Counted from the first letter of the stretch, positions 49,301 through 58,300 are shown. The stretch is DNA of 64,000 bases from an uncultured Gardnerella sp. (GCA_947088155.1 CAMUFL010000002.1:148275-212274), one strand, 5' to 3'. A program made the numbers.

Positions 49301-52300
49301 TTTCTTATGATTGCTTTTCCGCGTCAAATATCACTCGTAACTCCGATTTTGTATTGTTTAACGTTAGCAGTACCAGGCGTAAATGCAACTTGCGTTCTTT
49401 TTGCGCTGCTCGCTGGCATGCTTGTTGCAGGCTTTTACGATTCGTGGAAGTATTTGCTTTCTGCGTACATAGTTTCGCTGAATATTATGTACTTTGCAAA
49501 AATGGAGTACATTCCGATTACTTTCCCTTGTTTTGTTCTTATTGCTATGATTTGTGGCTACGCTTTGCGCAAGTATTTGAACATTTTGGAGGAAAATAAT
49601 CGCGCAAAAATGGATATTGTGCGCAGCGAATTCCAGTCTTATATTGCGTCTGTTGCATTGCAATTGCACGACGATGTGAACAATGAGATTACGGATATTA
49701 CATTGCTTGCGACTGATGCTTTGTATGCCGAGAAAAGTGATCATACAAAAGAGTCGCTAGAGCAGATTGTTGAGCATTCTCGTAATGCGCTTTCTAAAAC
49801 GCGACTTGTTATTAATTTACTTGAGCAAGCTGAGCATAAGTATGATGATTCTTTAGGTTCAAATATTGTTAGCAAGCAGTTTATTTATGGTTCTAATGGC
49901 AATAATTGCATGACTTTGGCTGATTTTCTATGCAATATTCGCGCACGATTGCAATCTGAGCGTAAGATTTGTGAGCAGCTTGGCTATTATGGCTCTATAA
50001 CAGTAAATGATGAAAGTTCGGGAAGTAACGATTTTGCTGTATCTGCAATCGTTAATGGCGAAAAAGCTCAATGTGCTATTCGCATGTGCAGTGAGCTGCT
50101 TACTAATATTCGCAAGCATTGCAATACTAGCGTTGATTTTTCTATGAATGTTACGGTTGATGAGCGCGCATGCAAAATAATGTGTATGAATTCGATTTCG
50201 ACGTTGAACAAGTTTGGCGAAAGGCTTGTTTTTGGCAAAGGACTATTGTTCCACAAAAAATCTGTGGAACGTTTAGGTGGATCTTTAAACGCGCAAAAAG
50301 ATGATGATGCGTGGCTGGTCAATGTTGTTATTCCGCTAAACTAACATCACTCAAATCGCACGTTATCGTGGCAGTTTTTGCAACGATAACTTGTTTAAAG
50401 AATATGACGTCTGCAATTCTTGTTGCTTTCACACTACAAAAAAGATAAAATATTAGTATGAAAGCAACAGAAGTGAGGTTATTATGTCAAACAAAAAGAT
50501 GCTCCTTGACTATTTAGATAACCATCATGGAATAATTACATACAAAGATTGTAAGACATTAAGTATTCCGACTATATATTTAACTCGTTTGAAAAACGAA
50601 GGTGTTATTAATCGAATTGAAAGGGGAATTTTCCTCTCTTCCAATGGTGATTATGACGAATATTACTTCTTTCAATATCGTTATCCGCAAGCTGTATTCT
50701 CTTATGTTTCAGCTCTTTATCTTCAAGGTCTTACAGATGAAATTCCACAACATTTTGAAGTAAGTGTTCCTAGAGGATATCGTTTTAATAATCCGCCATC
50801 AAATTTAACTATTCATTGGGTCTCGAAATCGTATAGCAAGTTAGGCGTTACTACAACGGCTACCCCAATGGGCAATAAAGTATGTGTTTATGATTTTGAA
50901 CGCATTATTTGTGATTTTATAATAAACAGAAACAGTATTGATTCTGAACTCTTTGTTAAAACTCTTCAAACTTACAGTAAGCATAACGGGAAAGATTTTA
51001 TAAAACTTCATGAGTATGCAACAAAAATGAATATATCCAATAAAGTTAAGCAAACACTGGAAGTGCTACTGTGAATAAGGCAAAATTAACGGCATTGTGT
51101 CATAAAATGTCCACAAAGACTGGTTTAACATTTAATTCTGTTATGACTTATTATTTTCTTGAAGTTATTTTGAAAAAATTAAGTCAAAGTAATTATTCAG
51201 ATCACTATGTTTTCAAAGGTGGATTCCTTCTGTCAAACATAATAGGTATCAATTCGCGCAGTACGGTAGATATTGACTTTCAGTTTCATAAAATGGAGCT
51301 TTCAGAAGAAAACGTTAAAAAACAACTAACAGAAGTTTTTGCAAATTCAAAAGATGATATAAGTTTTTCTATTCAGTCTATTGCGGCTATTAAAGAAAGC
51401 GATGATTATGGAGGATATCGCGCAACAATTTTGTGTGAGCTGGAAAATATTAAACAAATTGTTCATTTGGATATTGCTACTGGTGATGTTGTTACGCCAC
51501 AGCCAATAAATTACTACTATAAAGCTATTTTTACCGATGAAACATTCCCAATTATTGCTTATAACGTTGAAAGTATATTAGCGGAAAAGCTTCAGACTAT
51601 TTATTCACGCAATTTTTTAAATAGTCGCAGTAAAGATTTTTATGATATTTTTATTCTTTTAAAATTAAAAAAGAATGATATTGATTTTTCGCAATTAGTG
51701 ATAGCTTGCCAAAGAACTTTCTTATATCGTGAAACAGAATTAGATTTTAATAAGATAATTAATCTTCTAGAATCTTTTAAAACTGATTATACGCAAAATC
51801 AACAGTGGCAAAATTATTCAAAAAAATATAGTTATACAAGAGGAATAACATTTTCAAACGTACTTGATGAGACTATAAACTTACTGAACATTCTTAACGC
51901 TAAGCAAAATGACTAAATTTGTACACGGTGGCGACAAGACGACAATTTTGGCGACATAAAAATGTCGCTTTGTGTCATATCTCTCATGTTTATTCTTGAC
52001 AAACTTATACAACAATTTTAATATTTTTAATAAAAGTTTAATTTAATTAAAGTTTTGTAGGTTGAAGAAAGGGGTGATATGGATCATATTCCAAAATGGA
52101 TGGCTAATCTCACAGATGAAGATATGTCGTTTATAAAGAACTTTGTATTATCGTCTGGATCGTTAAAAGAAATGTCGCAAATGTATCAAGTCTCTTACCC
52201 AACGATGAGAATCAGGCTTAACCGGCTCATTGAAAAGCTGCACATAAGCGACAATGAACCAGAAGACCCGTTCGTTCTTTTAGTAAAGAGTCTTGCTATT

Positions 52301-55300: not shown

Positions 55301-58300
55301 GCATTATGCTGAGCAACAGTCTTCTTGAGTAATGCATAAATTTGATCAGCTTTGTCTTCTGTCACACCGCGTAATGAAAAAAGGCGACTCGTTTGTGGAT
55401 ATATAGCAATACAATCACCCAAGGAGTCACTCATTCTTGTCAAACCTAGCAGCGATGCAAATAATGCAAGCAGAAGAACAAGTGCGCATGACAATGAACG
55501 CAACAATCGAGACATCGCATACCCCTATAATAAGTTATTCATACATACAGATTATTTGCAATCCCAATAGGCAGTAGCACGACCAGTGCCTACAAAGGCT
55601 GTAGCATTTGCTAATTCTCCAGGCTTTTTCCAGCCAGAAAATACATCATTAGCGCCGGCAGCATGCGTATACTTGTGAGTCTGCACGTGCGAGTAACTAT
55701 AAACTGCCAACCAACGACCATGTTCCCAGTTGACAGGAGTTCCTTTATAGTAAACAGTTTCAGCTGCAGCAATGCCGCATGGAACTAATGCCATGGAAAT
55801 TGCTAACACTACTGTCGATGCAATACGTGAAATTTTCTTCATCGTAAACCTCCAACTTATTTGCTGGGGGGGGGCAATGTGCCTCCCACTAACATGATAG
55901 ATTCACTTATTTGTTGCGTCAACAAGAAATGCTAACGACTTATTCCGACCGAGTATTTAGACGAACCTTTGCGTAGCAAACGCAAATAAGAAGTTAATCT
56001 GCGATGCAGAATGGTGTTTCGTTGCTATGTTATACGAGTTATCGTGGCAAAAATTGCAAATTTAGCAAAAACTGCCACGATAACTGTGTGCGTCACGCAT
56101 TTGCTGGTTCTATTGCAATACGTCCACCTAATGCTTGAACAACCTTCGCAATAGTTTGGAAGCTGGGATTGCCGTCTCGTCTTAAGCTTTTGTAAAGGCT
56201 TTCCCTTCCAACCTCGGCTTTTTGAGCAATTTCTTTCATTCCTCTAGCTTTTGCAATATCGCCTATAGCGGCTTGCAGTAAACAAGGATCATTTAGTTCT
56301 GCTGCTGCATTGAGATACGCAATAACATCATCATCGTTCTCAAGATACTCACTCGCATCCCATTTACTTATATTTACCATTTCTTCTCCTCAATTAACTG
56401 TGCAAGGAGTATCTTTGCTTGTTTAATATCTTTACTTTGACTACTTTTATCTCCACCAGCGAGTAACAGCATTAGTTTTGAGCCTTTTTGCGCAAAATAC
56501 ACACGATATCCTGGCCCAAAAGTAAAACGCAGCTCGCTAATGCCATTGCAAACTGGATGCAAATCACCTACTGGCTTGCCTGCAATTTCACATAATCTCA
56601 GCCTCGCGTTAATTCGAGCTTTAGATTGCGTATCGCGAAGTTTTTTCATCCAATTGCGATACTCATCTGTTTTAAGTATCTCCATAAAAATATTTTATCC
56701 TGTAGGATACAGTTTTGCAATAATAAGTAAACAGTCATATCAGTTATCGTGACAAAAACTGCAAAATTAGCAAAAATTGCCACGATAACGCGTGATTTCG
56801 GCTGCGCGATATGGTCGTAACTATTGTCGAACAATCAGTTAAAAAACATTGTTTGCGCGTCAACAAAGTTGATGCTTGTTTTAGCATGACGAGGATTGTA
56901 AGAAGTTGGATGCTTTGTAAAAAGCATAAATATTTTCTTATAATCGCGATTTTCTGCATTCTCAACTAAAGTTGCTCGCTGCAACAACTTGCTCACTGCT
57001 TCAGCTTCGTTAAGATTATTACGCCACTTACATTCTGCAATAATAAGCTGCTTGTTAATATCGTCTTCTGCAACAATATCGATATCAGTTTGTTCACGAG
57101 CAATAGGATCCGCACCCCACCATTTACCTAACTTAGTTGGCAAAAAGTCCATTCCGCCAACTTTGCATTGGCGCACAATCCACTGTTCACACATTTTCTC
57201 AAACTGTTGACCTACAAAAGTACTAAACACTTCATGCTCGCCACCAAGAATGCTACTTGCGGCAGCGTGTGAAAGTCCGCGTTCAATCAATCCTTTATTA
57301 GGCGCTACAAACCTATACCAATACGCAAAAAATGGGTCACAAATCTGCCATAATCCTTTTTTGCAATGAAGTGGATTCATGCCAAATGGAATATTTCTTT
57401 CAATTAATCCAAGCCCTTCTAATGTTTTCAAATACACGTTCACTGATGTAGCTGGCAATCCAATGCGATCCGATATTAAAGTCGGAGTATTGCAGCCTGT
57501 TGCAAGAGCGTTTAGTACACTATTGTATGTTGAAGGATCGCGCAATTCTTGACGCATGAGCATGTCTGGCTCAGCGTACAAAATTCCCGAAATGTTAAAG
57601 CATAATTGCTCAAGATTTTCCGCAAACGAAGACCTATTGTCCAACTGCTCAATATAGTATGGTGTTCCTCCAAGGGATGCAAAATAGTTGATTTTATCTT
57701 CCCAAGTAGCATTATTTGGCATAAGCTCAGCTGCTTCAAAAAGATTAAATGGTTGCAGGCGAATCTGCGCGTTACGTCTTCCGTAAAGCGGACTCTTTTT
57801 GCCAAGCACTTCACTTTCCATGAATCCTTCGTTGCTACCACACAAAATAAGAGTCATGTTCGCGTTCTTAAACTTATGATCTATTGCAACTTGAAATGTT
57901 GAGGCTAAAGACTTATCCGCTTGAGCTGCGTACGGAAATTCGTCGAAAACTAGAATAAGTGGAGATTTAGAAGCATTCGGGTCTACGGCGTTAGATTGTT
58001 GTGCAACGAAATCGAGAGCGTCGTTCCAATTATTAAACGATCCTGTAGTTGATGGAAGATTGAAGAAGTCGTACACAGTTCGCGAGAAATCACGCAAATT
58101 CTCGATATTAGTTTGCTCGCGAGCAGTAAAAAGTATTGCGCGCTTATTTTTACAAAAGTGTGAAATAAGAGAAGTTTTTCCTATTCGTCTTCGACCATAA
58201 ACTATTGCCATCTGGAACGAGTGATTGCTGTTTTCATACAGTTTTTCAAGTACTTGTAACTCGTCTTGTCTGCCAACAAAAACCATATTCCACCTGCCGC

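Follow-up and report, generated by a model that had tools for sequence, protein, structure and literature searches.

The closest described counterparts of the locus reported here are integron cassette arrays, including clusters of attC sites lacking integron-integrases (CALIN), and the pdif (Xer) modules of Acinetobacter plasmids. In a 64 kb stretch of DNA from an uncultured Gardnerella sp. (GCA_947088155.1, CAMUFL010000002.1:148275-212274; the whole stretch is hereafter the window, and positions are counted from its first nucleotide), four copies of a palindromic element, GTTATCGTGRCA-N5/22/23-TGCCACGATAAC, separate bacteriocin, toxin-antitoxin (TA), and other accessory genes. We consider it probable that these elements are the junction repeats of a Gardnerella cassette array that is conserved in position and hypervariable in content, and that extends from a LuxR/histidine-kinase gene pair to the 3' end of nrdF. 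We rate the array as working like an integron or a pdif-module array while being a member of neither.

Like an integron or CALIN, the Gardnerella locus is a single chromosomal site of tandem exchangeable modules with a short imperfect palindrome at each junction, carrying TA, defense, and competition cargo whose content differs between close strains. Unlike an integron, it has no IntI, attI, or Pc; its junction is fixed at 47 bp and conserved in sequence, whereas attC sites are conserved in structure only and measure 57-141 bp; and its cassettes are found in either orientation, with promoters of their own and in some cases several genes, whereas integron cassettes are mostly promoterless and co-oriented. 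The ends of attC are R'' (RYYYAAC) on the 5' side and R' (GTTRRRY) on the 3' side, and we know of no report of integrons in Actinobacteria. The pdif modules are likewise discrete, often encode TA or resistance functions, and are bounded by short conserved sites in varied contexts and orientations with no dedicated recombinase adjacent, the pdif enzyme XerC/D acting in trans from the chromosome. However, pdif is a 28 bp site (11-6-11) with distinct XerC and XerD arms, whereas here two identical 12 bp arms stand 23 bp apart, the ATAA/TTAT ends face outward, and the array is chromosomal and occupies a single locus.

Shufflons (Rci/sfx) and multiple-inversion systems share with this locus the inversion, singly or in blocks, of segments between short repeats, but a shufflon only inverts, using 19 bp inverted repeats at the 3' ends of one gene with rci adjacent, whereas in Gardnerella whole modules are also gained, lost, and reordered, and no recombinase is adjacent. 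Repetitive extragenic palindromes (REP) and REPINs, BOX, Correia, and neisserial dRS3/NIME elements are also short intergenic palindromes able to be recombination breakpoints, but are dispersed in tens to thousands of copies per genome, whereas the Gardnerella element is found in one array. From miniature inverted-repeat transposable elements (MITEs) it differs in that all copies lie at cassette junctions and their flanks are not direct repeats, and from a CRISPR array, in which repeats of 24-48 bp alternate with non-coding spacers of 26-72 bp, in that the "spacers" measure 0.65-3.4 kb and contain complete genes. Neither the element nor the array was found described in full-text searches, which reach few subscription-journal papers.

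At no more than one mismatch the arm GTTATCGTGRCA matches the window nine times against 0.60 expected from shuffles, a count reached by none of 100 shuffles. Eight of the nine matches form four inverted pairs, the ninth being a solitary one-mismatch match at 10914, and no fifth copy of the element was present in the window even with two mismatches allowed per arm. The original prediction, made from the sequence of the window, had proposed four such palindromes; with an arm count this far above the shuffles they are real, and the coordinates then given were right to within one or two bases (52558..52606 becomes 52559-52604, and 56744..56790 becomes 56743-56789; Table 1). All four are intergenic, as predicted. 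Every copy in the window does follow a transcription unit at its 3' end, as also predicted, but copies elsewhere can lie between divergent 5' ends: in loci L034, L035, L037, and L039 the element separates a minus-strand cassette of the C0 family (described below) from a plus-strand HigBA cassette. The center of element 2 is the reverse complement of the centers of elements 3 and 4, and the 29 bp form of element 1 recurs at the kinase-side junction in DNF01141, L030, L036, and L037, this junction in other genomes having 47 or 64-65 bp forms.

The elements act as rearrangement breakpoints. Across about 45 loci, blocks of homology stop at the elements, and when the window from 44 to 64 kb was compared by blastn with 23 loci, blocks started and ended at elements and recurred in other orders and on the opposite strand. 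Thus window 50379-52604 (the AbiE/DUF2089 cassette, 2.17 kb) is inverted in Gv582 (5845-3618), window 56039-56789 (HigBA) directly follows the kinase in KA00747, five genomes (KA00225, L015, L016, L021, and DNF00502) have the DUF234 block inverted, and Gv1-004-1, L035, and L037 have the bacteriocin block inverted. Ten further 20 kb loci, retrieved by the exact HigA protein of the window, show at least five different arrangements. Rearrangement is also seen between near-identical flanks: L032 has [DUF234] in place of the [ABC operon, C0] of L031 and L033, the kinase genes being 99.2-99.3% identical and nrdE 99.7-100%, and L035 and L039 (nrdF 99.6% identical) differ by inversion of a three-cassette block, DUF2089-C0-HigBA, as well as in the presence of the bacteriocin cassette. 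The earlier suggestion of an island-specific module-boundary or recombination-site function is upheld by these breakpoints and by the reshuffling and inversion of the cassettes between them.

Clustering of the segments between elements gave recurrent cassette families of fixed length: C0, a second LuxR/kinase pair with a 156-aa protein (2.7 kb, 12 copies); HigBA, toxin-antitoxin (0.66 kb, 9 copies); the DUF234 ATPase-nuclease (1.65 kb, 7 copies); a RelB/YafQ-like TA family (0.68 kb, 5 copies); the lactococcin-972-type bacteriocin operon (3.3 kb, 4 copies); AbiE/DUF2089, abortive infection (2.17 kb, 3 copies); and C9, a DUF4143 ATPase (1.35 kb, 3 copies). These counts, like the tallies of orientation, are not counts of independent events, many of the loci being from related strains. 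The cargo is made up of TA, abortive-infection, defense-candidate, and bacteriocin modules, and promoter-like sites are present inside cassettes. The 0.66 kb HigBA cassette was found in at least nine genomes, in both orientations and at differing positions in the array. Cassette order, number, and orientation differ in essentially every species, and the array always lies between the kinase and nrdF flanks.

Exchange takes place within the element and not in the adjoining cassette DNA. In close arrays, variants of arm and center go with the left neighbor in some cases and with the right neighbor in others, and the cassette-proximal first bases always remain with their cassette; the crossover therefore falls within the 47 bp, to the left or the right of the center. 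The orientation of the center is mixed relative to most cassette ends, on which ground we rejected an attC-like ownership of one element by each cassette. Copies with opposite center orientations constitute 47 bp inverted repeats, and copies with the same orientation are direct repeats with 12 bp inverted arms. Because the copies are near-palindromic, any pair is both a direct and an inverted repeat, so that inversion and deletion or insertion are both possible.

The distribution of the element was investigated with a scan for exact arms in one genome for each of 185,579 species, with results reported in 8 kb blocks. Each of the 29 blocks recovered belongs to Gardnerella or to unnamed Bifidobacteriaceae. 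A genome has 1-5 exact copies, which occupy adjacent blocks and hence a single locus, and no genome has more than one additional site, such a site being seen in KA00747, KA00225, G. piotii, and G. swidsinskii GS 9838-1. Nearly all copies are at the locus between the LuxR/histidine-kinase pair and nrdF. Confinement to the accessory block, as originally described, thus holds in the window by the arm scan and across the genus by the genome scan, and the search for the arm pair genome-wide, proposed at the time as the means of telling island-specific from genome-wide copies, reveals a locus-specific family and not a genome-wide REP.

An origin of the element in phages or plasmids was considered and set aside, viral contigs giving no match. 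Identity of the array with the dif/terminus region of the chromosome was not supported; the change in sign of the GC skew near 52 kb coincides with a switch in gene orientation, and in complete genomes the array lies ~7% to 52% of the chromosome length from the nearer record end. The second array locus of G. piotii and of G. swidsinskii GS 9838-1 is edged by transposase-like open reading frame (ORF) fragments (L004 3565-4041; L010 3763-4668), which by eye, from their translations, resemble IS3-family OrfB and are followed by further TA pairs. A solitary HigBA with a single element at the HigA 3' end is found at a second chromosomal site (L014 4607-5198; L023 1367-1958), next to a paralog of window 41468-42212, and represents a cassette outside the array that has retained one element.

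Conservation of the element was assessed with 63 full copies from the first set of loci, whose consensus is GTTATCGTGGCAAAAATTGCAAAATTAGCAAAAACTGCCACGATAAC. The length is 47 bp in 57 of the 63, the others measuring 29, 37, 38, or 46 bp, and some strains have 64-65 bp forms at the kinase-proximal junction. The spacing between arms falls into classes of 5, 13-14, 22-23, or 40-41 bp, and the length classes are spaced by multiples of 9 nt, which fits a change in the copy number of the unit TGCNATTTT in the center. Conservation of the arm positions is 91-100%, reaching at least 96% at all but position 1, and much of the asymmetric center does not vary either. Among 36 distinct 47-mers there is no compensatory change affecting both sides of a base pair; the arms are 96.5% paired, owing to the absence of variation, and the inner stem is broken in 13% of cells. 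The lack of compensatory changes argues that it is the sequence, and not the pairing, that is conserved. Folded as single strands, the long copies form a 12-13 bp basal stem, a 4x4 internal loop, a 4 bp apical stem (TTGC/GCAA), and a 7 nt loop, with energies of -10 to -16.5 kcal/mol for the four window copies as DNA (z -2.8 to -6.2; element 2, -15 kcal/mol, z -4.5) and of -15 to -27 kcal/mol for copies as RNA (z -2.4 to -6.0). The elements have no Rfam match at the gathering score, the only such match in the window being tRNA-Met at 18374-18447.

The four bases just outside each arm (e.g. 56085-56088 and 56739-56742) are hypervariable, with a mean pairwise difference within cassette-end families of 0.26-0.30 compared to 0.05-0.1 for the next 40 bases and about 0.04 for the arms. 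Many of these 4-mer variants look like CpG transition decay (GCGC, GTGC, GCAC, GCAT). The possibility that they constitute a recombinase overlap swapped at each event was rejected, as each 4-mer, in the arrays with identical HigA, remains with its cassette irrespective of the neighbor. In the bases flanking the elements neither stem extensions nor direct repeats of the kind left by target-site duplication were seen.

Table 1. Junction elements, cassettes, and flanks of the array in the window, with gene calls annotated by Pfam, NCBIfam, and PADLOC.
Feature	Coordinates	Strand	Content or structure	Context or basis
Left flank	48387..50344	+	LuxR-type response regulator (48387-49127) and HisKA_3 histidine kinase (49121-50344)	Pfam
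Element 1	50362-50390	no strand	29 bp = 12+5+12; GTTATCGTGGCA-GTTTT-TGCAACGATAAC, right arm TGCAACGATAAC	Between histidine-kinase flank and AbiE/DUF2089 cassette
AbiE/DUF2089 cassette	50391..52558	+	AbiEi 50484-51074, AbiEii 51071-51916, DUF2089 HTH 52079-52372, 57-aa ORF 52369-52542	Pfam; PADLOC AbiEi/AbiEii
Element 2	52559-52604	no strand	46 bp = 12+22+12; T-rich center on + strand	Between AbiE/DUF2089 and lactococcin-972-type cassettes
Lactococcin-972-type bacteriocin operon	52605..56037	-	ABC ATPase 52639-53310, 732-aa membrane protein 53317-55515, 96-aa precursor candidate 55552-55842	NCBIfam TIGR03608 (245.8 bits; ABC ATPase), TIGR01654 (732-aa membrane protein)
Element 3	56038-56084	no strand	47 bp = 12+23+12; A-rich center on + strand	Between bacteriocin and HigBA cassettes
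HigBA cassette	56085..56742	-	HigB-like toxin 56374-56685, HigA-like antitoxin 56093-56380	TIGR02683/TIGR02684
Element 4	56743-56789	no strand	47 bp = 12+23+12; left arm variant GTTATCGTGACA	Between HigBA and DUF234 ATPase cassettes
DUF234 ATPase cassette	56790..58425	-	AAA+ ATPase with winged helix-turn-helix (wHTH) and DUF234, 56835-58286, plus promoter region	Pfam; PADLOC PDC-S27
194-aa ORF				Between DUF234 ATPase and nrdF
Right flank	59503..62932	-	nrdF 59503-60597, nrdE 60710-62932	Pfam

Relatives of the element occur outside Gardnerella, upstream of DUF4143 ATPase genes. A metagenome scan with 11 nt arms returned mostly Gardnerella arrays, together with two non-Gardnerella contigs, L049 (GC 0.53) and L058 (GC 0.43), both of which have TTATCGTGGCAGATTTTTG-N7-CAAAAATCTGCCACGATAA. 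In L058, where this relative has a 19 bp stem with T runs on both sides, it precedes by ~45 nt the start codon of an AAA_14/DUF4143 ATPase that is a homolog of the cassette C9 protein; the ATPase gene of L049 is internally deleted. Three further C9 homologs were fetched at about 73% protein identity (P0018, GC 0.40; P0059, GC 0.48; P0072, GC 0.31-0.35), and each of their loci has one arm-23-arm copy directly upstream of the gene (GTTGTCGTTGCA-23-TGCCACGATAAC; ATTAACGTTGCA-23-TGACACGATAAC; GTTAACGTTACA-23-TGATACTATAAC). In four non-Gardnerella lineages the ATPase genes are 65-83% identical to C9 in DNA. The right arm abuts a -35-like hexamer (TTGAAA, TTGATT, TGGCAA, or TATGAA), followed after 17 nt by a TATAAT-like -10, and the relaxed pattern TTNNCGTNNCA-N20-26-TGNNACNATAAC has one match in each relative locus and none elsewhere in them. 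Between L060 and L066, 81% DNA homology begins exactly at the left arm and stops 22 nt past the stop codon, and in the non-Gardnerella contigs the element is the 5' edge of a conserved ATPase unit. In the three fetched relatives, that is, in three of the four lineages, the arms are only 7-9/11 complementary. The retention of the half-sites and of the 23 bp spacing where complementarity is lost points to a duplex site read by a protein and not to a hairpin.

The two ATPase types of the arrays are listed by PADLOC as the defense candidates PDC-S01 (DUF4143) and PDC-S27 (DUF234), and both domains have been classed as PD-(D/E)XK nuclease folds (Steczkiewicz et al. 2012, PMC3424549). The association is specific to C9-type genes; one with all ATPase cassettes was rejected, DUF234 homologs in Bifidobacterium being without the element, and a similar array with a 75%-identical DUF234 relative (L075-L077, GC 0.43) has partly decayed elements. 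Five metagenome matches that share only the 11 nt arms (L044, L051, L054, L055, and L056) have unrelated centers and neighboring genes and were treated as chance hairpins. In L060 the ATPase unit appears to replace the middle of a SLFN_AlbA_2/HATPase_c_4 gene, and in L066 it is flanked by 224 bp direct repeats. The window itself encodes a PDC-S01 paralog (31112-32572) with 31% identity to C9, and the palindromes upstream of it are different: two of 28 bp, AAGTTTGAGTTATCGATAACCTAAACTT and AAGTTTAGGTTATGTATAACTTAAACTT, and a third half-copy lie at 30885-30975, 140-230 nt upstream of the gene. Their core, GTTATCGATAAC, is similar to the outer halves of the junction arms, and their half-site resembles a DtxR/IdeR box.

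These relatives bear on an alternative explanation, in which the palindrome is primarily a cis-regulatory or insulator operator, for example for the wHTH of DUF4143/PDC-S01-type ATPase-nucleases, and shuffling is incidental. We regard this as possible, though on the unlikely side. It would accommodate the occurrence of the element once per locus in four non-Gardnerella lineages with its right arm against the ATPase promoter -35, the preservation of half-sites and spacing where hairpin potential is gone, the distinct palindromes upstream of the PDC-S01 paralog in the window, as expected of cognate operators, and the want of a recombinase near the arrays. It is harder to reconcile with the Gardnerella elements, which flank every cassette type, whether at 5' or 3' ends or between divergent genes, with varying distance to the promoter; the window has four elements with no C9-type ATPase within its 64 kb; the DUF234 ATPase homologs of Bifidobacterium have no element; and the bracketing of unrelated modules by one repeat at a single locus is left unexplained. 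The binding site for a dimeric regulator that was among the originally predicted roles is viable and is favored by the half-sites and spacing conserved outside Gardnerella, but nothing ties the element to the local LuxR protein. A resemblance to a sigma-54-like TGGCA-N5-TGCA motif was dismissed for its wrong spacing; to our knowledge the phylum has no rpoN.

The stable hairpins (energies above) would suit bidirectional intrinsic terminators or attenuators insulating neighboring transcription units, as would the position of each window copy after at least one gene 3' end, the U-rich runs after copy 1 and after the minus strand of copy 2, and the 19 bp stem with T runs of the L058 relative. However, none of the four copies is called by a terminator scan, the loop extends over 23 nt, a U tract is missing from most copies, some copies separate cassettes that are transcribed divergently, compensatory substitutions are absent and the inner stem is broken in 13% of cells, and neither the identity of the sequence across species nor the fixed 47 bp length would be explained. 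This reading is quite improbable and a terminator-only role unlikely, and attenuation, as originally suggested, does not hold up as the conserved role, given that no terminator is called, U tails are few, placements can be divergent, and it is sequence and not pairing that is conserved. Selfish repeats of the REP/REPIN or MITE kind, also among the original suggestions, would likewise be short, palindromic, and intergenic, and the 12 bp terminal inverted arms, starting TG...CA from the cassette side, have the appearance of such elements; but at most about five exact copies per genome, undispersed at one locus or rarely two, flanking bases that are neither direct repeats nor stem extensions and so give no target-site duplication, and a window with no REP-associated tyrosine transposase (RAYT), Y1, or other transposase make this very improbable. 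A true integron cassette array with attC sites (CALIN) has the slightest claim: its TA- and defense-rich cassettes parted by imperfect palindromes whose fold runs stem, internal loop, stem, loop would match, but an IntI gene was not found in the window or in the Pfam scans of ten arrays, the element termini GTTATCG...CGATAAC are the inverse of attC, with GTTATCG not matching GTTRRRY, sequence is conserved rather than structure, and the cassettes, of up to 3.4 kb, occur in both orientations with promoters of their own.

In the junction-repeat reading that we prefer, each cassette would be a self-contained module with its own promoter, parted from its neighbors by a 47 bp near-perfect palindrome, and exchange within the elements would delete, insert, transpose, or invert single cassettes or blocks. 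The palindrome itself is probably a protein-recognized site, with two 12 bp half-sites set 23 bp apart by what would be a phased A-tract spacer of 9 nt units, and it may be maintained since it renders modules exchangeable, insulated, or both. For the agent of exchange, a sequence-specific enzyme encoded elsewhere in the genome has about an even chance of being correct. It is favored because unrelated modules are all bracketed by the same repeat at one locus, because length and half-sites are tightly constrained, and because, in known systems, it is usually a site-specific enzyme that moves short-repeat modules able to invert and relocate. Host RecA-type recombination on the 47 bp repeats, aided by transformation between strains, is somewhat less probable, and some other means has a small share of the likelihood.

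Several observations weigh against this junction-repeat reading. The genome scan, being limited to exact arms, one genome per species, and 8 kb blocks, could have missed diverged copies elsewhere, and many of the loci are related, so that their counts do not stand for independent events. Crossovers are not at a single fixed point, and a recurrent half-element upstream of degraded HigBA is a plain microhomology deletion across 9 nt, ATTGCAAAA, shared by the element center and the HigB promoter region. Pfam scans of ORFs across the 64 kb window yielded neither Phage_integrase nor any other recombinase or transposase family, and the Pfam lists for 10 kb on either side of ten other arrays contain no recombinase gene; we know of no tyrosine or serine recombinase whose core site has a 12+23+12 layout. 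The flanking genes are moreover mosaic (L038 and L031 are 95% identical in nrdF and 99.7% in the histidine kinase); together with the microhomology deletion this indicates that general recombination is active here and could suffice.

A more specific version of the trans-acting enzyme, which we put forward as doubtful, is cassette capture independent of an integrase, in which the junction site would derive from a PDC-S01 promoter palindrome and a PDC-S01-family ATPase-nuclease or other enzyme acting in trans would recognize the half-sites and cut or pair them.

The LuxR/kinase flank is kept beside the first element in most loci, and in many genomes the last element lies ~190 nt past the nrdF stop codon. 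The DUF234 cassette of the window is without the right-hand junction element that other genomes have, and its right edge, set by comparison at ~58425, is where similarity to the L016 version stops, at TTTTGCAATAT. The remainder of the window is housekeeping (dnaX, asd, ATP synthase, nucS, FTR1-type iron uptake), with a second low-GC islet encoding a Fic protein, a leucine-rich repeat protein, and a DUF4143 ATPase. To the left of the two-component flank, 45934-47663 encodes a DUF3800 protein (PADLOC candidate PDC-M04A) and a small ORF that weakly matches a Cap4 nuclease; in some genomes this stretch has been deleted or varies, so the variable region reaches beyond the element-bounded array.

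Individual cassettes show further features. A run of nine G at 55866-55874, read as C on the coding strand, precedes the start codon of the 96-aa bacteriocin-like gene by ~25 nt. In other Gardnerella genomes the run numbers 7, 9, 10, or 12 G, and it may act as a slipped-strand switch, on/off or of expression level. About 197 bp inside the precursor gene (window 55579-55775) are missing from DNF01141, Gv1-004-1, and L009, which retain the membrane protein and ABC ATPase at 97% identity and look like immunity/export-only variants. In the promoter region of the DUF234 ATPase, a perfect palindrome with 24 nt arms (58361-58412; TAATATAATCGCGATTATTATAAT / ATTATAATAATCGCGATTATATTA), of which L016 has a related, imperfect version, is probably the operator of that cassette.

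The architecture is integron-like in a phylum for which we know of no described integrons, and its junction site is short, defined by sequence, and easily assayed. The link to a PDC-S01 promoter palindrome outside Gardnerella offers a first functional handle on a very large uncharacterized family of ATPase-nucleases. If capture at PDC-S01 sites were to prove true, it would constitute a new class of gene-cassette mobility, mobilizing defense, TA, and bacteriocin modules and giving the abundant orphan ATPases a function. Gardnerella is the key organism in bacterial vaginosis, with species and strains that vary in competitiveness and phage exposure. The locus amounts to a compact, genus-wide switchboard for these traits, with a lactococcin-972-type bacteriocin, AbiE, HigBA, RelBE, PDC-S01, PDC-S27, and an extra two-component system among its cargo. 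Because its content differs between strains whose flanks are 99-100% identical, it is both a marker for strain typing and a natural experiment in modular exchange.

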